From the NCBI RefSeq assembly GCF_026571515.1, contig NW_026854124.1, positions 558,001 through 622,000 of the forward strand: a stretch of DNA of 64,000 bases, read 5' to 3'. Shown here piece by piece: positions 9,049-45,470 of this stretch (position 1 is its first letter; each line of letters starts with the position of its first letter). The notes under the pieces were generated by a model. The model was given only the letters and a program-made list of their open reading frames with translations. It had not been told where the DNA came from and ran no database searches. A program made the translations under genes and the position numbers. Origin of the DNA: Ruditapes philippinarum (lineage: Eukaryota).

Positions 9049-9148
9049 GACAAATTAAAAAATGTTGCAGACTCGGTTTGATTGAGCCTGTTCATGGACG
9101 GCACTGCAAAATGCAAGTTACCGTCTTGGCCCCGTAGCACCGGTTGAA
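9043..9148 (+). repeat. Dispersed repeat family A (transposon end), copy 1
   Basis: AAAATGTTGCAG.CTCGGTTTGATTGAGCCTGTTCATGGAC..., ending CCC.TAGCACCGG; homologous to the copies at 11299 and 60505. Confidence 0.85.
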
Positions 9149-9554: not shown

Positions 9555-11298
9555 GGCTGGTTATACTGTATCTTGAGTTACTTACAGTAATTCAGTTATG
9601 TAACTAACGTTTATAAATATTAAAGGCACGTCTAGATGCATTTGGTAAATTCCCAAAGATATGTAAAAAAAACTAGGCTAGCTGAATTTAGAGGAATTAA
9701 GGTTTTTGCATGACAGACAGCGTACAGATGTAAGTGATTGCAATTCAACGCAAAATATTTGAGATTCTCTTTTTTTCTTCAACTTCAGTGAATGCGTGGG
9801 TACAAAGTTAGGTTGTATGAAAGAGAAGTATATCTTTGCAATTGATCTTCATATAAATATCGTATTTTATTTGATAACATTTTCCTTTAATCAAAATGTT
9901 AATGATAACGATGACTTAATATGTTAGAAGGAAATGAAAACAGACACGCATTTTAACCGATGTTTCCATGTTTTTAACCAATAATAATTAATAATAACTT
10001 TTATTTCACCTATCAATTATTAGCTTCTGATATTTTCATTGGATAAAAAGGGTCACATGGTGACTAACTACTTTTATATAGTCGGTTAGTAGTAGCTGAA
10101 ACATATTCTTCGCTGGAACAATATGGCAAGGATTCAACAAAAATGTCTTTTTAGTTCAATATTTCCCTCCATAAAATTGCCATTTTTTTGAAATATTCAC
10201 TTTTGTCTTTCTGCTTTTCATCAAACTTTTCTTTGTGATAACAAGAGTTATTTCCGTGGTCACCTTTCATTTTGCAGACAATTTCATATATATCATTATC
10301 GCAATCATGTTAATATGATATGATATGATTATGCTGATTGTGATTTCTTTTAGTATAAATAAAAAATAAAAACTTTTATAGCTAGTACTTCGGGATGTTG
10401 GAGATGCCAAGCCTGCCATTTTCACTAATTGTTTTCATAATTTAAAAGTCACCTTTTTTAGAGTTGATAAAAAGTTGTTATACTTTAATCAAATGATAAT
10501 ATGTAAATGGCATCAACTTGTAAGAACATAATGTAAGGTTTATGCTCCTTCCACACGTGCAGATGAAAACGAATGACTGGATAAAATGCCACTGCAATTT
10601 ATTTTCTTTACTAAATTTCTCTCTTTATACCATTGTACAAAAAAAGCTAAAGCTGGGCTTATCTTTCATATCAATGCTATCAATTTAAACCATTGTTTTG
10701 AAGCTGTTGGAACCATCTTCTGAGTAGACAATTTATCATCTAATGATGCGCCTAATCAGCTACACGCTCCTTCACAATGATCTTTAAAGATTTTTTCTTC
10801 CAGTTTATCGATGCCGTTTCACCTTAAGAGAGATAAGAATGTTTCTTAAAAGATAAATGTCTGATTATGTAAACAAAAATAGAGAAATAAAAACAAAATA
10901 CTACTAGATACGAGTTGTACATCGTGTTACGTCCTTTATGTGGTAATATTTGAAATCCTTAGGAGAAGATTGTGAGAATGTTACGTATGAAAAAAAAATT
11001 AAAGGAACTCCACTGAGTTTCAAAATCATAAAAATAACATTTTAAAATTGTACATAGATCAAGTGAGGTACTCAATATTGAGCTATTAGGGAAATATACT
11101 CAGACATGAATTGAAAATCGTATTTTTGTGCTATTCGTAGCCACGTTTGAGTGGAAAGAGTTGCAGTGCTGTTCATTTTTTAGTCATTATACATGAAAAA
11201 TAACTATTCGGAAAAATGGAGCGAGTGAGTGAATGAATAAACCAAAGTTATTGGTCAACTAGAGAAAATATGAATCCCTAAAGAAAGCCCAACAAGGC

Positions 11299-11376
11299 AA
11301 AATTGAAAATGTTGCAGGCTCGGTTTGATTGAGCCTGTTCATGGACGGTACTGTCAAGTGCAAACTACCGCCCATG
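11299..11376 (+). repeat. Dispersed repeat family A, copy 2 (terminus missing)
   Basis: Near-identical over about 75 bp to copies 1 and 3. Confidence 0.85.
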
Positions 11377-13921
11377 ACTTTATATCAAATGGAACATAAA
11401 TCTCGTAAAATATATTTCTAGTCACGTAATGTCATATAACGTCAGTGGAGTCCTATTAACTGAAGCAATATATCAGAAAATGCTCTTGTATGTTACATCG
11501 TAATATCGGACAATTGTATCAAAGCAATATATACGTCTGTGCTAAATGAGGTACAATGTGATCTGTTTATGATCTTTGAAAAAACATGTATGTGCAGCTG
11601 TTACTTATCGTATGTCCTTGCTTTGAGAATTCCATCGGTGTTTTAAACAGGTATAAAAGTAGCATGGTAACACATTTGCTGTGCAACATTTAAGGTCACA
11701 AACAGAAGAAACACGTTAAGGTATTCCAAGATTAAAGCAAAATCAAGCAATATTTTGACATTGATATTATAAATAAAATTTTATATCAACCTCATGCGTA
11801 CCAAACTGAGTTTTAAAAACTAAGAAAATCACCGAATGTTCTAATCAAAAAGATCATTTGTTAACATGATATCAAAAAGTGTTCGTATTGTTGGGGAAAA
11901 AAGATGGACACTGATTTAGACAGGCCTTTGAGAATTCTAAATTTGGTCGCAAATATTAAAGCACCTTCTACAACTGTTTCAGAATTCACTTGGTAATTGT
12001 TCATATTGTTTCTTTCATCCAATGAGATCAACCGGTGTCATAGCCGTCGTTTCATTTAGAATGAAATCGGTTCTGTTTTGGTTAACATCTTTGACATTGT
12101 CAAGTTCTTCATTTGTTTATCATCATCTTACTTATGTTTACCTTGGCATATCACGAAAATCTCGTGCAAGAATCCAATATACAAGGAATGCAATTAATAT
12201 TTATTGTGCGTTTCAAAGAATTGGTGTAAGTGTTTCATCTTGTTGAAACAGATTAAAAATGCCCGATCCTAATGCGCTTTTGAAATGCACATTTTCACAT
12301 AAGCTGTTTCGTAAGGATTTGTTTCCGTTAATTGTGCAAGAAGCTTATTTGTGCCGGTGTTTTTATATAAAGTCTTTGTCTTAATGGGATATATGAATTG
12401 TTTTCAGGTGTTAGAAATATGACAATGATTATTGTAATAATATTCTTGTATATTCCACTTCTCGATAAAAAATATACATTTAGATATGTACTTCATTTTT
12501 GAATGGTAGTTGGTAGAATAGACACGAACAAGACAACATGTAATCAATGTAAGAGATAACTTAATCAATATATATGCAAAAACATTGAAAAATAAATGAA
12601 GGGAACGAAAGACTAAAAATTATTTTAAGTTCTAATAAATGCCATTCTATATGTAGACAAAATATAAGCGCAAAGTTTTGTATTTGCTACTATTAAAAGT
12701 TGTAATTTGTTCACAAGAGCACACCTTTAAAAGCCGGTGCTTGTGAAGAATGAGAACAAAGCTTCATGAGGAAAGGCGGTATTTAACAACCGCAGCCCCC
12801 AACAAAACCTAGTTACAACTTAACACCGATACGGAACCCAGCAGGACCCATTTTGAGCGGTTCTCTTGTCAATGCCCCTTATAAGTACAAAATAGTTATT
12901 TCGATATTTAGATGCAAACATATGTAAATGCCAAAATTATACAATTTGCGGGCATATTCCAAATTTGAATGTTTTGTCAGGCTTTCTATGACAAATATTA
13001 GAAGTTCATTTGGCGGGGAATCGCTTTATTTTCACTGTCTCGTATCACAGAATATGTTAGGACTGAGAATGAGGTTTGGTCACCATTCTCCAGTAGTGTT
13101 TTAACTATTGCTGTTTTTTATAGTGCGTCTCACCTTGCTCCTTTGTCATGTCTTGACTAAAAATGTTCGTTTGCTATTTGCGTTTCTGTTTATTTTCTAC
13201 TTCGCCGTTACTTTTCTCCCACCTTTCATTTTTTTCCTTCAAATTTTTTCACTGATAATTAAACTAAAGCCCCGTTTTGGTTCGTAACTGGTCCATCATT
13301 CGACCAGTTTGTCTGCCCCTTCCCATTTGGATCCTGTTAATCTTTATTCTTAACAACTTTTCAATATTGGTGACAAGGAAAAGAAATTAACTTAGAGAAC
13401 AATCGAAGAGAAGCTTTTGATATTTCTGATAATTTTAGCGATTAAAATTGCAAATGAACAAAATAAAAAAAGTAAAACATCTTTCCTTGTTTGATTAACG
13501 CTTACTTGACATTTAAATGTTAACCCTTTTATATGTAAGAAATTGGTGTCCGTTTTCCAATCAATGCGGAAAGTCTCCGTCTCGTCTCCTCTTTCTGAAT
13601 ATCGTATGTTTAGCACTCATTTATTTTCGACAATCACGTTTTACATTTTGTCTTACGATACGTAAGAGCCAAGAAAGTAGATAATACAATTGAAGAAATG
13701 TAAATGCCGCTCTAAAATAGTTTTTTTGTTATTTTGACTTTGGAAATGTTATCCAGATCGTACTATGTTTGCCGAATACGTTCGCATTCTTTGAGTTTGA
13801 TTATTACTTTTGTGTGAGGTTATGGATTAAGATTATTCAAACATCTATATGCATTCATGCTTACAACTATTTAATTCCGGGAATCCTCGATTGTTCATGT
13901 TCTGAGGACTGTTAATATCGG

Positions 13922-17592: not shown

Positions 17593-20500
17593 GATTTTTT
17601 GAACCGATTGGAATCAATTTTAAAGTTTAAATTGTCAGTAACATTGTTACATATTACATATATTATGTTTACTATTAAAGTTTACTATCTATATTGCATC
17701 CTGAAAACAATCTACCATTCTTGTCAAACAATTAATGAAAGCTTGTGAGAATTATTAGGATATTGACTTAACATAACATTTACATGTATCATAAACATTT
17801 TCATATGATAATTTGTTTGATGTAAGTAAATTATATATTTAATGACCATACATATTTTTAATATCATAATTCAACTTAATTTCAGTTGTGTAGATTATCA
17901 TTAGATAATGAACAGAGAATTTTCACAAAACATATTTCAATTAATTTAATGCTTGTTGACTATGAACTTTTAAAGTTTTTATCAAATATTAATTGCTGCT
18001 TACAAATTGTCATTTTTTCTTTGAAAAGAGAAATCTTCTTAGAGCAAGGAAAACAAAAACTAAATAAATTGGTAAAAAATGGCAAGTCGGTAAGATAGTC
18101 TTCACGTGAGAAATATTGTAAACTGCTACATCTTCTATGCTCCCTAGCACCGGCTTAAAGAGTATTCGGTTTTCTACTTTAAAACTATCGCAATCATGCC
18201 AGCTCTAAAAAAATGTAGCTGATAACTGGGATTTGTCTCTGTTTGGTGGCCATTTTGCAAAGCCCACGTGAACTTCTCTACAAAAAATTACAGAAAAAAT
18301 AAAATGCAACATAAATTCAAATGAGTAATTTAGAAAATTGCGTGTTCGTGTATTTGTTTATTTATTTATTTATTTATTGAGTTCTTTATAATTGTTGATA
18401 GTAGTTTGTCTGTGTATTGTTTTGTTTTTGTATTTTCTTGTGGTAAAAAACGAAATCTTGAAAAACGAAAAAAATCTAAACTTTCTTTTATAACAGCTGT
18501 GATTTCTATTTTAATATAATATGAAATAAAAACAAACGCATAAAAAAGTAAACTTTGGCACATATTTTATATCGCAATTTATTTTTGGAAAACAGAATCG
18601 TGCAAGTCAAATTTACATGCTAGAACATGATATTGCTAACGACTCATTCCAGATTTTTGCGAAACAAAAATTCAGAACCTTTTCACAGAATATTTACTTC
18701 AATTCAGTTTGAAATAACTAAATAAGAAACTGGTATTATTTTAATTTTTATTAAGATGCTTTTGTCAATACGTCAACACACAAAACAAGAATTATGTATC
18801 TCCGTGTCCATGGGTTAAATGTTAATATATAGACGTATAACTACATGCAGAAATATGATATATTAATAAATGTTTTTGATAAGACTAATAAACTATTTGT
18901 ATAAACCACATGGTCAATAGAGTGACGTCCAACACAAAAACACGTCTTATCACAGCAATAGGGAAGAGATGTTACTCTAGATGTTGTCAATTGAACAAAT
19001 ACATGGCATTCAGATTGAAATTATCGTAGGAAATCATCGATGTAAAGTTCTTGATCCTTTGGAGATGTGTCTGGCACGGTAAATAGAGACAACATGGGCT
19101 ATAAATCATTGGATGCCATGTTGTCTAGAACGCGCTTGTGTCCATACGATCTGCAAATGAAAATAAATTGATTATTTTAGAAGCTTGCAGTGCGCATGAC
19201 AAAAGAATAATTGACGCAGACCGATAAACCTTTATTGAACTGTAGGGTCCACGCAGTTTTGGGAAACCATTGGATCGAAAATAGCATGTACGTTTTAGCT
19301 GGATACGAATATCGACGTCTCGAATCACTGATTTTCTTATTCTATTAAATATTTATATTTATTTTCCATTATTTGAGATCATGGGTCTCCAAAAAAACAA
19401 ACATAGAGTAATTTTAGAATAAAGGACTTAATACGGGCGACTGTAACCTGAAACCACTGTTCTAGAGACTGTAATTGGCTATACGTATAATGTTATGTAT
19501 ATATTTGTAATTTACTGGTAAGCGGTCCTCAAAAGGCAAACAATACTAATATAATTAATATTTGTACAGGTGCTTAGAAAAGCAAGAAATTATTATGCCT
19601 GTGTTGTATAACCACGTATGGGGTCTATGAAGACGTCAAATTCGAAGGCAGCTTTCAACAATTCTGAATAATATTTCTCGCAACTTGTTTAATTGATATT
19701 CAAATTGTTTTGCTGCCTGGGTTTTATTTTAGCATTTAATGCAAAGAAACAACTATTATGATAGAAAATGAAAGTCTAAATAATGTTTTAGAAATAGTCC
19801 ACATGTGATTATTGTAAAGCTTAACTCAAATAAATAACGAATACAGTTGGAAATATTTCCCGACACAATATGTTTATGAACATAAAAAATTATCAGTTTT
19901 GTAAAAACACCGAAACCTAACTGAAGCTTGACAACGGATTCAATTTGTTTGTTCTCAGACATTATTTTGTAATGATTTTAGTTTGTTTTTTTCAACTCGG
20001 AACCCTTTGAACTTTCGTAATGAGTAAAAACATTGCAGTAAATAGGATGCAGATGCAAGAACTGAAGTGAAATAAAAACAACAGAGAATATTTTGTATTG
20101 AATGTTAGTCATTTATATCATTTTGTTCGGCAATATGTATTGTTTTGAATACATAAGTCATCAAACCCTCAACTAGATTCCTTATGTCAACTTTTTTTTG
20201 CTTTCTTGGCTATGTTTTTTCTGTTTTGTTTTTCCTCAATACTTAGTCATTCGTACGAGAAAAGAGATCCGAAATCATGCCCAATTATCCATATTGATCG
20301 ATTCAGAAATTCTAGAGGACCAAAGAAAAGCAATGCAATCCTTTCGACTTCTTACTATCGTTCAATGTCACAACAACCTACTTTGCTTCTTAGGTATATT
20401 TTTTACACAGATTGAGTAAATTAGTTTTATTTAAAATACTTTATTTGTTCCGATACGTATTCTTTATTTTGACATTTGCTCGTGACAATTTCTCCGGTGT

Positions 20501-20604
20501 ATAGTACACGCTAGTTTTCACAGCACACCCGCGTTATTCTATACCCATCAATTTAATATGTTCGTGCAATGTTGCTTCAGGTATCTATATAATTCTGTTT
20601 TCAG

Positions 20605-20698
20605 ATTTGAGTGACAGGGCTAGACAGTCGTTCTCCGCTCTTACAGCCCAACGTCGTCGTTTTGACAGGCGAACCTGAGTCCTGAATACCGATAATTC
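20605..20698 (+). other. Candidate non-coding exon
   Basis: Acceptor TTCTGTTTTCAG| at 20604 (alternative TTCTCCGCTCTTACAG| at 20646), donor C|GTGAGT at 20699; locally GC/CpG-rich. Confidence 0.3.
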
Positions 20699-38600: not shown

Positions 38601-41539
38601 TAATAATATACTAAGTATATCTGAAAGATAAAACGTATAATAAGTACTTAAGTCTTTGACTTCTTTGAAGGTCATCTGCGTCTGTAAATAATTACTTTTT
38701 AATTCCATAAAACCAGTTTTATATTTTTCATTTCCGATGTTCTCGCGTATCAAATCAATAGGTTGGCGCTCAAAGTTCTTAAGGTAAGCTGTACTTCGGT
38801 GAGTTTTTATTCATTTTTGCGGTCACATATCAATGAAAAATTGCTGTTTTTGTAATTTTCATATATAACCTGGCTATTAAAGACTGAGTACAAAATATAT
38901 CAATTTTCTTTGATACATGTTTAGAGATAAATTTTAATCGTAACTTGAAACATTTGACATAACTACCTTAGTTATTTCTAAATGTTGATCAGTTATGATA
39001 AAATATGATATATTTTCATTAAAATCCTGTCGTATAAAGTTAACTGATATATTGATGTAATTTACGTTACGTGGAGAATCGTTTAAAATCTTATATATTT
39101 CTCAAGCTTATCAAAGTATATGAAAGAGAAAAAAATAAATGAAAATGTATCGGGTTTCGTTTTAATTTTTCGCTTGACATTTTCATGACGAGCTGTCGAG
39201 TGTTATCAGAAAAGTGTTTTCTGTTCAAACGATGTGACAAAATTGTCACAATTTTAGTGATGGGCGTCAATATGGTAAAGTAAATCGCTTTTGATCGTTA
39301 GAGCGCATGAAATTTTGTAAATGTCGCGAACAACGTGTTGCTCCCCGAAATATATAAAGATCCTAAACTGTTTAATAGAGATGGGCTATGCCATGCGTGA
39401 AGGGGGTTGGAGATGTATATTTGAATTATCATGTGTTTCACTTTGTAAAAGAATGCCTGAATTATAATGTACAGGTCGAAAATAACATCATATAAAGAAA
39501 TGGGCTTTCAACACACATTTGATTGAAGTTGGTTCAAAAAAAGGATGCAGACCTCAAAGACGATATATGCATATATTTTACATCAAATTTTCAATATTCG
39601 AAAATGGGTGTTTTTTCTGTTTATTATTAAAACAGCTGTTTATGTTAAATATTTGTTGATTTGTGCGATATATGTTGCTTTTTTTAAATTTCCGATTAGA
39701 CTGATTTCGATCACTAGAATTCGAGTTAGAGGATATATCTATTCTACGATCTAATAAATGTTACATTAAATGAGAAGACTTTATTTCATGTCTTCAATGG
39801 CATACTGATATCAAACGATATATTAAAGTTTTCAGACTTACATAGAATTAGTGACTGTGCTTTAGGGATGAGGAGAAAAAATGGTAATATTGACAAACAA
39901 CTTAACTACTTAAAATAAACATATATTATAAAATGATACATTGTTTTACACTGTTACATTTTAGACTGTTTTTGTAAAATAACATTTTTTGATAAATTAA
40001 GACTTCTGCACTGACCATAAGATTATCCATTTGAAATCGAAATACCGCATTTATTAAACAAAACATAATGACATCTGTTTGTTTCAATTTCTATATTAGG
40101 ACAAATGTATGTACTGCATATGAATTATGTTTATTTTTTATGACAGAGCAACCGGCCATTATTCAAAATTTTATAGAGTAAGATTTTAAAAGGTGACTCA
40201 TGTTGAGTAAGAAAATAAAAAAAGTAATTGAAACTTTGCGATCGAAACTGTTAAGTGTGAACAAAAATTCATACTGCAACCGAGAATATTATGCAGTTTA
40301 AATAAAACAAAGTTATATGATCAACAATTTGTTAAGGAACAATACCAGTCGTTGTTTTGATGTGTTTTGTCAAATGAAACGTGCTTCTCCTATAGAGTCT
40401 TATCTCCCTATTCAAAAGTTATAGAAAACTAGCATAATTTTCAAATTTAACTGTTTTTGTAAACAGCTTCAAAACAGGTTTTTGCAAGATTATTTCAGTA
40501 GACAAACATTACTAGATTAGAAACCGGTTTTACTTTAAAGGAATCATTTAGAATATGATTTTGGTTTGGGCAGCGAATATATCTTTGAAAATTTCAAATA
40601 ACTCACACAATTCAAAGTAATGAAGTGAACGTTTCCAAAGCTCCTATTTCACCAGCTTAAACCAAGTGACCACTTGCTCAGTACTTTTACAAAGACGCAT
40701 TTACACCAGGGTCCAGACAGCATTGTCTGCAGAATTATGCGTTTTACCACAACAAAAGAAAGAGTGTATAATTATAATAACAACATTATCAAGGCTTTTA
40801 AGTATAACTAGTTGATTTGGCGAGAAACCAACCAATGGCCATTACGTTTGACTCCCCAGTCTCTGCTTTGTTGACCAAAGTACTTTAATTAATATTTCAG
40901 GACTCAGAAAATCTCGGTATGGCCAGGGACTCACTTGAGAATTAGGCGATAAATTATTGAAATATTGAGATTACAGATAACTTCATTACAATAGCAACAT
41001 TTATTGTCTTCACACCATTGTCTTTGCCACAGGACATGGACTATTATCAACGGAATTATCTAATACACTTACACATGGCTATTATATATGGAAAGTACTT
41101 AAATATGTAATGCAAAAGGAGACACGCCGATCAATTGCGATACAGTGGCTTTTCGTTTTATCTTCAAATTTCGTTATTGCAATAAGTTTAAGAAAACTGT
41201 TAGTTTTAGTATTGTAAATTTGAAAAAATACTTATAAGTGATTTTTGAAGCACCAGTATCACGTGGGACATAACAATTTGCAGAATACATAGAGAAAAAA
41301 TAAAATAGTTTACATACTTTCGGTTATTTTTATTTGCAATGTCATCCTACTTATAAACATGTATATCCTACGTAAAACATATTTAACATGTCGCCATTTA
41401 TCTTTAAGGGTAATATAAATTTAAAAGAATAACAGCAATCGCAATTGCCTTTATAGCAATTACCTAACAAAAGGCAGCTCATCCTATTGCTTCTTTTAAG
41501 AATTCATAGTATTTTCGCATGACGACCAAATACCTTTTA

Positions 41540-41770
41540 ACATAAAATAGTTTTCGCCTCGTGTTAGCGGTCCATAAAACATAACGACTTCAACAATAGC
41601 TCACAACAAGCGTGGAGTATTTAGCGAACATAAAAATTAATTTCACATTACACTAATTATTATTAAGGCAATAAAGCGGTGCTATACCACCAAATTCGCT
41701 GACTCTTCCATAAATCAGTCGGCACGTGAACGAATGTATCAAATAGCACAAGCAACTTCATGGCGGTGAT
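41540..41770. promoter_or_regulatory. Candidate Cdx/Hox-Pbx enhancer about 3.2 kb upstream of Hox3
   Basis: CCATAAAA (41572), CATAAAA (41629), GCAATAAA (41668), CCATAAATCA (41708-41717) and CACGTG (41723-41728), co-oriented, in CpG-retaining sequence. Confidence 0.4.
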
Positions 41771-42297
41771 ACAACCTTAAATTGCGAACAAAATTTATTA
41801 GGAGAAAAGAGATGAAGCAGAAGATATATGTTTAAAATTTCGACCGAGGCTTCGTTTGAAAGATATAGTTTTATATTTGGATACAGAGAGTGTAACGAGA
41901 TTGTACAGAGATGTCTCGCTTGCCTTAATTCAGATAGGTTAAATGTTTGGTGAAATTGGATATGCGTAGCATTAAAATGTCAAGATTTGATTTTATTACA
42001 GTACATAGGAAGTGAACAAAATAACCTAAAATGTATTTAATCCAAAAGACATAAATAAGTGTTTAAGGTACTTTAATCAAGTCGTTTTTTAAAAATATTA
42101 TCTACATACTGATTCTATGATATTATTCATCAATAAAAAAGGAGTTGATAAGTGTTGACAAAATAGTGCTATAGATAAGTTTCGGTGAGTTATTTGTATA
42201 TATTTGTGTGCGTTTTACACATGATATGTGCAGTTTCAAAAACATGAAGATGTATTGCAAGCTAAATGAGGACTTGATGTTTTATTATATATTGTCT

Positions 42298-42462: not shown

Positions 42463-44847
42463 TCTATTTGAACTAACATTTCTTATGTTGTAATTACATA
42501 AATTATAAATACATGAATATATGTAGTCATATCTACTCCTTCAGTAAGTTGTAATTTGACATCTTGCTACAAGTTGAGTCGATACTATAATGAATGATCT
42601 TAATATTTTAGTTAAACATATAAAAAAAAACATTGTGATGTCCCTATCTTTACTTACATATAAGATCATCTTTTATTTTTGTAACTACTTTTTCTATGTT
42701 AACAATTGTTAGGAAAAAATTGTAAGCTAAATATAAGTAATTTACAATAATAAAAATACAATGTACGTATGTTGCATTTTGTACATGCATTGATTGATTA
42801 TTTCTGTAACTTCTCTGATTTTCGGTAACTGGAAACAAATATAGGCTAAACATACTTTTATTCCAGGCATCATTGCATTTTATAAAAGTAACAATACACA
42901 TTTGTTGATACATTTTGCACGTGTCTTGATTGATTGGTTTTACTCAGAAATATGTGTTATTGCACTAGAGAATCACAAAGACAAACATTTTTGTTGTTTT
43001 TTTCTGACGCATATTGAAATATAATTTACATGGTAAATATAAAATTCACTATTGTAAATGATTATGAAAACCTTACCAATTACTTTTTTGCATGTACTAG
43101 ATTTGTTTTTGTTTTAATTAAATCTTTGATCTTCCAATATTAATTTAGTTGCCATTGGATACGGAATATGAATCACATATCAAACATTGTACTTTTAGAA
43201 AATAAAATAGAGTATTTGATATTTTAACCATAAATACATTTTTCAAACAAAGATGGTTGAATACATATAAAAGTGCACATTAAGCCGTGTTCAAACGAAA
43301 CCATTTCTGGGTTCACTATTTTTTAAAAAAAAAAGAAAATTCGAAAAGAAATCTTAATTTAAAACCGGATCAAACGCTGAAATTATGGCATATTTTCCAA
43401 CCACAATTTCTTTTCCAGTACACCACACCATAAAAATAAATCAGATCCTTAAACCCAAAAAAGTATACAAGTACTCATTCACAAAACCACTTTAATGACA
43501 TTTGTTAACCATTTGTGATCGCAAATATAAAAGTGCATGTACATTTGATTATCAAGTACGGAAATAATAAGAAACGTCTTTTTTGTATCAATTAAAGAGT
43601 AGTTCCTTTTCCAACTCGTTATAATCATTTCGATTGCGTAATGAACATTTCTAGTAAATGTTGGTGTTTTTTCTATGTTATCGGAAGTTGCATTTGCAAT
43701 ACTAAATAGACAAAAATCAATTTGATGGAGGGAACGAAATTAATTGATGAACAGTAACTAGCCACCGTTTCATCTAAGGATCACGCGATCACGGGCACTC
43801 ACATTGCATGCTACCTAAAAAGTACATTTAAAAACATTATTTACTGCTGTGCACATGAACATTTTTGCAAATGCCTTTTTCGAAAGAGGATGTGAATAAC
43901 GGACGAAAAACAAATCATGTAAAGGAAATTAAACATGATTCTATTTCCTACCGAGGAACATGTTAAAACGAAAGGTTGATTCGAAATTGCAAAAAAAATA
44001 CTTTTAAAAATATTTATTTAATCTTACTCTAACATGAAATTGTTGATAACTTTTTTAATGTCTTTTTTCTGTACGAATATTTGAATAACAAATGTTTGAA
44101 CACGGTTTACGGTGCACTTTTATATGCATTCATCTATGCTTTAAAAAAATATGGTTAAAATATTAAATACTCTTAATTTCTTTCTAAAAGTACAAATGTT
44201 AAAATTGCAGGCTAGTAAACATTTACAGGCATTAATTTCGAACAAAATGGTATTGAAAAGAACAGAAAGAAATATATACACATATACATATATATTTAAA
44301 TACTTTTCATTTGATATTGTAACGCAAGACGTATTCATTTAAAATGAGCACATTTTTTGATGTTACAATTTTCAACTATTATTATAGATTATTTTTGAAA
44401 AATAAGTTTAATATATATATTTTTAAATACCTGTTAAGTTACATTTACGTTTTTTCACCTCTGTATTCATTTTGATGGTCGCATTTGATTAACAAGTCTA
44501 TCGTTCACATGTTACTTGATTACGGAAAGTTACATGATATCAATTCAGCAGTCAAATCTGGTAGCTAATTCACCGCGAAAAAAACGCTTTTGTTGTGATA
44601 GCCGAACGAAAGGTGGGTTTTCATCGTATACGCATGCCGAATTGAAAACATCAAGCGACTTCTTTTATATACGAGTTGTCTCTTCAACGTAAACCTAGTT
44701 TCACTTCTGTTCTCGAGTGCTTAAGAGATTTGTTTATGTGTCAAAGAATTCAGTTATTTATGCGAATAGAATAGCTGGGAGAAAATTGATGCGAAAATCA
44801 TTGCTTTCGTTTTGCGGTGTGTATAATGTATAAACTCTAGACGTGTA

Positions 44848-44870
44848 TTTCTCTCTCTTCTTTTTTACAG
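44848..44870 (+). other. Splice acceptor (polypyrimidine tract + CAG) upstream of the Hox3 coding exon
   Basis: TTTCTCTCTCTTCTTTTTTACAG|CG, 105 nt before the first ATG; implies at least one upstream non-coding exon. Confidence 0.7.
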
Positions 44871-44906
44871 CGATCGGTAGAAAAGAGAGAAGCTGTGTTC
44901 CGGTCT

Positions 44907-44933
44907 CTGATTGGATAACCATTAATCACGTGA
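44907..44933 (+). promoter_or_regulatory. Hox3 proximal module: reverse CCAAT box, Pbx/Exd-Hox site, E-box
   Basis: CTGATTGG (44907-44914); CCATTAATCA = reverse complement of TGATTAATGG (44919-44928); overlapping palindrome TCACGTGA (44926-44933). Confidence 0.6.
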
Positions 44934-44936
44934 GTG

Positions 44937-44966
44937 ATGGGGAATAGAACAGTGGCAATGGATTGA
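44937..44966 (+). other. Upstream ORF MGNRTVAMD* in the Hox3 leader
   Basis: ATG 44937 (GTGATGG) and in-frame ATG 44958 (GCAATGG); TGA at 44964-44966; out of frame with Hox3. Confidence 0.5.
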
Positions 44967-44974
44967 GGGATAAT

Positions 44975-45470
44975 ATGTCAGTTTGTGAACAGAATGAAAT
45001 AAATTTTGGCAATCGAGACATGCAGAAAACAGGCTTCTATTATAGCCAACAACAACCGTTTAATTCTTATTATCCGTCAGAAAATGGATATTGTTATGAA
45101 AATATTCCAGCGAACGGTGGAAGTTACGGGGAGCCGAGTCCCTCGCCCCCGGGCGGAGATTACTTTCCCCAGGGGCAGTGTAATATACCCCCGGGCAGCA
45201 ATGCTGCTCCGAATGGTGACTTAAGTCCGAGTCGGTACGTGGATCAGTATTCTTCGAGATGTTTACAAAACATGAATTGTAACCAAAATTTGGACTCAAC
45301 AAGTCCAACGAATGGTGTTATGAAAAAGGAAATATACCCGTGGATGAAAGAGTCTCGACAGAACACTAAACGACAACAACAACAACAACAATCGCAGCAA
45401 CAGACGCAACAACAACAGCAACAGCCACAACAACCGCCTCAAAACTCACAACAACAACAAAATCTTGGAG
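44975..45470 (+). CDS. Hox3: Hox paralog group 3 protein, first coding exon (N-terminus, hexapeptide, Gln-rich linker); partial CDS, homeobox exon not found in window
   Basis: Translation MSVCEQNEINFGNRD-MQKTGFYY...KKEIYPWMKESRQNTKR-QQQ. MQK..YY and (F/Y)PWMKESRQN are PG3 signatures (vertebrate HOX3: MQKATYY, IFPWMKESRQN). First in-frame ATG is at 44975 and the conserved MQK ATG at 45020; the ORF-track start at 44963 is a TTG. Donor GAG|GTAAGG follows 45470 (496 nt from 44975, phase 1). Confidence 0.93.
45374..45460 (+). repeat. CAA/CAG-rich coding repeat (22 Gln in 29 residues)
   Basis: QQQQQQSQQQTQQQQQQPQQPPQNSQQQQ directly after YPWMKESRQNTKR. Confidence 0.95.

Follow-up and report, generated by a model that had tools for sequence, protein, structure and literature searches.

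Three short motifs, a reverse CCAAT box, a Pbx/Hox site and a palindromic E-box, are crowded into 27 nucleotides just ahead of the Hox3 coding sequence of the clam Ruditapes philippinarum, and the locus raises the question of whether they form a promoter grammar that the clam shares with vertebrate Hox genes. An earlier note on the window (the whole stretch of 64,000 nucleotides of contig C2611 that was analysed) had proposed such a grammar, with Hox auto- and cross-regulation built into it, and had suggested that the same DNA serves as exon of a long isoform and as promoter of a short one.

The Hox3 module and its transcripts

Contig C2611 carries nine homeoboxes, all on one strand, which from their signatures and order we take to be Lox2, Lox4, Antp, Lox5, Hox5, Hox4, Hox3, Hox2 and Hox1; Hox3 is the only label backed by a named search, the other eight being assigned from signatures and order. 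The gene has a Hox3-type homeodomain, a YPWM hexapeptide and a place between Hox4 and Hox2, and the protein of its coding exon is 88% identical to Mercenaria HOX3-like. The coding part of this exon (44975..45470, plus strand) begins with the first ATG at 44975 and contains a second in-frame ATG at 45020, which corresponds to the vertebrate start, and the YPWM at 45335; the homeobox exons, encoding the Hox3 homeodomain and C-terminus, lie 19.5 kb downstream (locus L001). Introns split the homeoboxes of both Hox3 and Hox4 (G000:C2611:622481-622627 and 623751 onwards, L001).

The letters of the window confirm the three motifs and their distance of 42 nucleotides from the end of the module (44933) to the first in-frame Hox3 ATG. 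The CCAAT box CCAATCAG, a predicted NF-Y site, occupies 44907..44914 on the minus strand with its core at 44910-44914, and the E-box TCACGTGA, a palindrome without strand that is a predicted site for bHLH-ZIP proteins of the USF/TFE/Max class, occupies 44926..44933. In the spacer, and at this gene only, lies the Pbx/Hox 10-mer TGATTAATGG (44919..44928, minus strand), which shares three nucleotides with the E-box. Read on the CCAAT strand, the E-box core is located 12 nucleotides 5' of CCAAT. Taken singly, none of the motifs goes beyond chance: when the 64 kb window was shuffled 100 times, their observed counts were reached 22, 13 and 9 times. NF-Y prefers a purine as the 5' flank of CCAAT; at Hox3 this flank is a T. 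A genome search with 44800-45100 returns a single match; the segment is thus single copy, on which ground an origin from a repeat was dismissed. By eye, the E-box sits within an imperfect 22-nucleotide palindrome (44918-44940), the right arm of which, apart from one mismatch, approximates another Pbx/Hox-like site.

Upstream of the module, a polypyrimidine tract ending in an AG (44846..44870, plus strand) had been read as a splice acceptor, and it is indeed used in four of four runs. The module is thus exonic in the long Hox3 mRNA, as had been suggested: contig ends in all four runs delimit a first coding exon (44871..45470, plus strand) whose leader of 104 nucleotides contains it. The runs carried no RNA label; five were presumed to be RNA and showed spliced joints, and their assembled contigs do not reveal where transcripts start. 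The upstream letters of the contigs, again in four of four runs, match a non-coding exon of 94 nucleotides (20605..20698, plus strand), which an X19 contig joins on both sides. Its upstream partner ends at G000:C2611:554254-5, outside the window and 48.6 kb above the coding exon. This distal first exon (G000:C2611:553290-554255; L002 5290-6255) lies between Hox4 and Hox3, and upstream of it are four CCAAT/ATTGG boxes and two TATAAAT words, reminiscent of the long-range Hox3 promoters of vertebrates. A longer unspliced form of the 94-nucleotide exon (18622..20698, plus strand), seen in two of the four runs (X3 contig 18622-20698, X18 contig 18736-20698), is either an alternative first exon or a retained intron. 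A minor alternative upstream exon (41531..42184, plus strand, end approximate) is joined to the coding exon in one contig of one run, with the joint at 42177>44869 and a GT donor at 42185.

The leader of the long mRNA measures at least 467 nucleotides and holds nine upstream ATGs, at least seven of which are contributed by the distal exon. Close to the main start, a predicted out-of-frame uORF of nine codons (44937..44966, plus strand), with ATGs at 44937 and 44958 that are both in strong context, ends 8 nucleotides ahead of the main ATG. Each of the Hox1-5 leaders of the clam has an ATG 27-37 nucleotides past the start of the TTGG box and ahead of the main ATG, and a common uORF layout in these leaders is possible. 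The fold of the Hox3 leader is unremarkable (z -0.11) and yields no Rfam match, on which basis a structured leader RNA element (IRES/TIE) is unsupported.

The CCAAT/E-box pair in the clam cluster and genome

As a cluster-wide pattern, the combination of CCAAT box and E-box exceeds chance. The 500 nucleotides above the ATG of each of the nine cluster genes were inspected, with a spacing window of 10-12 bp and the E-box 5' of CCAAT, both taken from published geometry and not fitted to the clam data. Five of the nine genes carry the pair, always in one orientation and no more than 320 nucleotides from the ATG. It is exact in Hox1 (ATTGG-N11-CACGTG at -170), Hox2 (ATTGG-N10-CACGTG at -312), Hox3 (ATTGG-N12-CACGTG at -65) and Hox5 (ATTGG-N10-CACGTG at -161), and takes the GTTGG form in Hox4 (GTTGG-N11-CACGTG at -133). 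The other four genes are without a pair near the ATG: in Lox5 the boxes stand in the opposite order and 19 nucleotides apart, Lox4 and Lox2 have ATTGG alone and Antp has neither box nearby, and relaxing the scan to CATGTG/CACATG added no gene among these four.

The scan of the contig covered 451,855 of its 822,156 bases and gave five exact coding-strand sites and none on the opposite strand, against an expectation of 0.22 per strand, and over the same bases gaps of 0-9 and 14-28 nucleotides give no coding-strand site at all; another 40 kb of the contig was scanned and contained no pair. With Hox3 left aside, the three exact sites among eight genes have a chance probability of 3e-10 at the genome rate, or 3e-4 if promoters are allowed a 100-fold enrichment, both figures treating the paralogues as independent, which they are not; their relatedness is the very point of the ancestry reading. 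Homeobox loci outside the cluster served as controls and gave one site in 40 loci of 10 kb (39 valid, L117 covering the wrong side), a set in which a first coding exon is recognisable by eye in only about half. Genome-wide, 1461 sites have the 10-12 nucleotide spacing, compared with 726 at 15-17 nucleotides and 615 in the reversed control; this twofold enrichment marks the pair as a general element of the clam genome too, although repeats make up part of the excess. A 52-nucleotide tandem repeat (G000:C1085:59666-60801) has the pair in most of its units and swells the genome-wide count. As for the proteins that might bind, NF-YA and Max genes are present in the clam genome, and USF was unrecognised among 40 of 46 HLH matches, its bHLH possibly being split by an intron.

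The fifth exact site of the contig, a sense-strand ATTGG-N11-CACGTG at G000:C2611:222736 (L014), lies 4.7 kb above an Antp-like ATG, which itself has an acceptor-like AG at -136, and is a candidate distal Antp promoter. Similarly, a sense-strand ATTGG-N10-CACGTG at G000:C819:61258-61278 (L144), followed about 230 nucleotides downstream by a GTAAGT donor, is a candidate promoter of a non-coding first exon; this site had been predicted to adjoin the Post2 ATG, a prediction that failed, the real distance being 5.25 kb upstream of the Post2-like ATG. The Post1 homeobox has no pair in the 40 kb upstream of it, and an Xlox-like homeobox has none in 20 kb. Downstream of Hox3, ATTGG is followed by three E-box-like words within 40 nucleotides (G000:C2611:628810-628850; L001 8810-8850).

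Counterparts in vertebrates and other invertebrates

The published comparisons are drawn from the available portions of the cited articles. NF-Y is found with USF1/2, MAX and MITF where an E-box lies 10-12 bp 5' of CCAAT (PMC4889920, PMC7793273). The 12-nucleotide spacing of clam Hox3 falls inside this window of the NF-Y/USF composite, which is known from human ChIP-seq, whereas the clam site is known from its letters and has a non-purine 5' flank (PMC4889920, PMC7793273, PMC3730095). NF-Y and USF1 are also described to co-bind at enhancers and in closed chromatin.

The orthologous mouse gene, Hoxa3, has a comparable arrangement. The primers for mutagenesis of its E-box (changed to CACTAT; PMC9456764, supplement file 3) contain ATTGG, 11 nucleotides and the E-box in the orientation seen in the clam. 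The Hoxa3 leader, an annotated leader formerly regarded as an 'IRES', powers a promoterless reporter, and its activity falls when the E-box is mutated (PMC9456764). The two genes are thus alike in orientation and nearly so in spacing (11 versus 12 nucleotides), and differ in that the mouse element is backed by promoter and mutation data and its spacer is without the Pbx/Hox 10-mer. TFE3 and ARNTL bind the mouse leader, and knock-down of USF1/2 does not lower the reporter (PMC9456764), which makes USF uncertain as the E-box factor. According to the same source, Hoxa9 of mouse and human has the pair in the opposite orientation, with a start site about 60 nucleotides away, which may be compared with the distance from CCAAT core to ATG in the clam, and in its primer table Hoxa5 and Hoxa11 have no ATTGG in that slot; in the portions available, invertebrates are unmentioned and a CAAT box is remarked upon for Hoxa9 only (PMC9456764). 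The promoters of HOXB4 and HOXB7 are bound by NF-Y and USF (PMC5223348; Zhu et al. 2003 as cited there). HOXB4 resembles the clam gene in having a proximal CCAAT box and E-box, 10 bp apart, whereas both human genes belong to other paralogue groups, were studied in human cells and, in the case of HOXB7, have a spacing of 21 bp (PMC5223348). The pair is therefore a known promoter element of vertebrate Hox genes (PMC9456764; PMC5223348).

Twenty metagenome loci with a Hox3 hexapeptide were also compared, four of them vertebrate-looking and fifteen forming one divergent invertebrate group, in addition to L050. The pair occurs in its GTTGG form in two of the four fish-type loci and CACGTG in three of four, L053 having the E-box only and L051 a CATGTG variant. 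In L058, which is teleost hoxd3a, and in L059, an acceptor-like AG is followed by GTTGG, 11 nucleotides and CACGTG, with the start codon 68 and 87 nucleotides later. An unguided alignment places the clam boxes on the fish boxes, and no flanks outside the boxes can be aligned between clam and fish. All four fish-type loci (L051, L053, L058, L059) have a ATTCATGTC block 40-70 nucleotides above the acceptor-like AG.

The fifteen invertebrate-type loci include three near-identical pairs, and five of them show a Hox3-like homeobox; none has a pair at 10-12 nucleotides, and L050 is without the E-box. A pair at 13 nucleotides in four of the fifteen lies just past an ATG that is in frame in 14 of 15, and probably falls within coding sequence; it was discarded as support since changes in that segment occur where codons are degenerate and all but one of the fifteen preserve the frame. 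Among the metagenome matches there is no recognisable mollusc locus, and scans for the Hox3 locus returned one chance match from prokaryote genomes and none from viral contigs.

Within the bivalves, a leader segment of 45 nucleotides (44930..44974, plus strand), which contains an in-frame stop in the clam, aligns without gaps to the annotated N-terminal 15 residues of Nucula Hox3 (P0004), a score reached by nine of 100,000 random window stretches. The alignment indicates that the Hox3 leader is conserved across bivalves. In it the first methionine of Nucula is matched with the clam E-box GTG, which implies an ATG in Nucula at this place and thus the loss of the perfect palindrome. CACATGAC is a known E-box variant; going by the protein alignment, the Nucula position would at best be a CACATG variant, to which CACATGAC would fit. 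The Hox3 proteins of Nucula, scallop and oyster start with Met-Thr, so that the other bivalves, too, are expected to have ATG in place of the clam GTG, and three bivalve proteins start with Met-Thr-His/Gln-Arg. Residues after the first clam Hox3 ATG are conserved as far as a polychaete, which implies that any short mRNA must either begin no more than about 40 nucleotides past the E-box or rely on the second ATG, at 45020.

Regulatory DNA is seldom shared between protostomes and vertebrates. A published list of such DNA gives 25 bilaterian segments in which CCAAT boxes and E-boxes abound, and in its available portions it names no Hox cluster gene (PMC10735318). These segments resemble the clam module in their CCAAT and E-box content at developmental genes of vertebrates and molluscs and differ in being alignable, whereas the clam Hox genes keep the boxes and their spacing only; 'Hox' occurs there once, in the title of a reference (PMC10735318).

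Function and origin of the pair

The recurrence of the pair in five clam Hox genes with one orientation and a spacing of 10-12 nucleotides, its exonic place and the matching arrangements of mouse Hoxa3 and fish hoxd3a are, with reasonable probability, explained by a composite site for NF-Y and a CACGTG-binding bHLH-ZIP protein that likely drives an internal promoter and was probably inherited from a bilaterian Hox cluster. The vertebrate-like grammar put forward by the earlier note stands as far as the CCAAT box and E-box are concerned, given five of nine clam genes, mouse Hoxa3 and fish hoxd3a, and is unsupported as far as the Pbx/Hox site is concerned. It is proposed that NF-Y and a bHLH-ZIP dimer would sit side by side on the pair and that the co-occupied pair would seed an internal promoter within the Hox3 leader exon. 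A start site between 44934 and 44974 would then give a short mRNA that escapes the seven or more upstream ATGs contributed by the distal exon, and perhaps the uORF too. In the long mRNA, initiated at a promoter 48.6 kb upstream, the module would be read through as exon. The distribution of the pair would reflect common descent, not recurrent gain, and the pair may be older than the mollusc-vertebrate split. Against a promoter, the conserved first ATG lies 61 nucleotides past the CCAAT core, which leaves little room for a start site, and what the contigs assemble in four of four runs is the long, spliced form; against conservation, the fish boxes are GTTGG or degraded. Just short of an even chance is given to a fuller scheme. 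In it, a stereo-spaced NF-Y/E-box promoter unit would already have belonged to the ancestral Hox gene, would have multiplied together with this gene as the cluster grew ahead of the protostome-deuterostome split, and would persist in a single orientation at clam Hox1-5 and at distal Antp and Post2 starts; Hox3 would in addition retain an ancient two-promoter design, the unit serving as exon of a long mRNA that is poorly translated and as promoter of a short one.

A literature search, with most subscription journals outside its coverage, returned no report of the pair in mollusc or other invertebrate Hox clusters, and the available portions of PMC8892498 treat neither Hox3 nor E-boxes. If the proposal is true, a unit common to five adjacent mollusc Hox genes and mouse Hoxa3 would offer a candidate core for colinear activation that can be mutated, and the view that the disputed Hox 'IRES' elements are promoters would reach an invertebrate.

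An unlikely alternative, though the most probable of the rivals, is that NF-Y and the bHLH-ZIP protein bind the pair without giving rise to a transcript of its own, the site acting as an exonic enhancer or opening the chromatin on behalf of the distal Hox3 promoter or of the cluster. This would fit the assembly, in all four runs, of a form spliced from exons 24 and 48.6 kb upstream, the CCAAT boxes that the distal exon has upstream of it, the scant room for a start site before 44975 and the co-binding of NF-Y and USF1 at enhancers and in closed chromatin. Against this reading, four sister genes carry the pair at a promoter-like distance from the ATG in a single orientation, and the corresponding segment of mouse Hoxa3 is active in a promoterless reporter; an internal start would in any case be invisible in the contigs.

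TGATNNAT is the Pbx/Hox consensus, and the spacer 10-mer TGATTAATGG fits it perfectly, which could mean that Pbx/Hox dimers on the spacer subject Hox3 to auto- or cross-regulation beside NF-Y and USF. Next to an E-box, whose flank supplies part of the motif, a degenerate match would turn up by chance on a given side in about 0.5% of cases, and one of 65 cluster E-box flanks has one. However, the motif was picked post hoc among many candidates and three of its ten bases belong to the E-box flank. It is missing from the spacers of the four sister clam modules and of mouse Hoxa3, and none of the 20 metagenome Hox3-type loci has it at the aligned position, L050 having one non-aligned match. Pbx/Hox autoregulatory elements typically have a Meis/Prep site nearby, and no such site occurs within 500 nucleotides above the Hox3 ATG. 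With these elements the clam shares a TALE-type 10-mer near a CCAAT box. The same is true of the DECA-CCAAT rule, which places GAnnGAC 11 bp 5' of CCAAT (bioRxiv 10.64898/2026.02.16.706105, in its available portions); clam Hox3 departs from this rule, as the E-box occupies that slot and the 10-mer is 4 rather than 11 nucleotides from CCAAT, has no GAnnGAC or Meis/Prep partner and is unconserved. NF-Y covers about 30 bp, which would make joint binding sterically unlikely. A triple module is accordingly judged improbable, and the built-in Hox regulation claimed for the conserved grammar is not upheld. The 10-mer is most likely lineage-specific spacer sequence, possibly a clam- or bivalve-specific competing site; within the proposed composite it would, if bound, compete with the pair instead of joining it.

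Slightly less probable again is that the pair is a generic functional promoter element gained separately in clam and vertebrate Hox genes. Parallel gain is possible because the pair occurs 1461 times in the genome, one copy standing before a non-Hox promoter-like stretch (C819:164861), and it would suit a pair of only 11 informative bases with unalignable flanks, the second invertebrate group without it and the opposite orientation in mouse and human Hoxa9. Inheritance is nevertheless favoured by the agreement of clam and vertebrate Hox3 in orientation, spacing and place, past an acceptor and ahead of the start, and by five adjacent paralogues set against one site in 40 other homeobox loci.

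It is highly improbable that the DNA motifs are by-products, either of an N-terminal coding extension that has decayed or of a uORF for translational control. In favour are the alignment of 45 nucleotides, E-box GTG to ATG, to annotated Nucula Hox3 coding sequence, the shared Met-Thr-His/Gln-Arg beginnings, the two strong-context uORF ATGs and the repression of translation by the mouse Hoxa3 uORF (PMC8172242, in part). This reading leaves unexplained why four paralogues have the pair as well, in different frames and at different distances, and why the CCAAT box lies upstream of the aligned part, and the leader shows no RNA structure or Rfam match; it is compatible with the internal promoter, the two not being mutually exclusive.

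Elsewhere in the window, a second TCACGTGA at 18102 lies beside one copy of a dispersed repeat, which is highly transcribed and is found at 11260-11380, 9050-9130 and 18100-18160.
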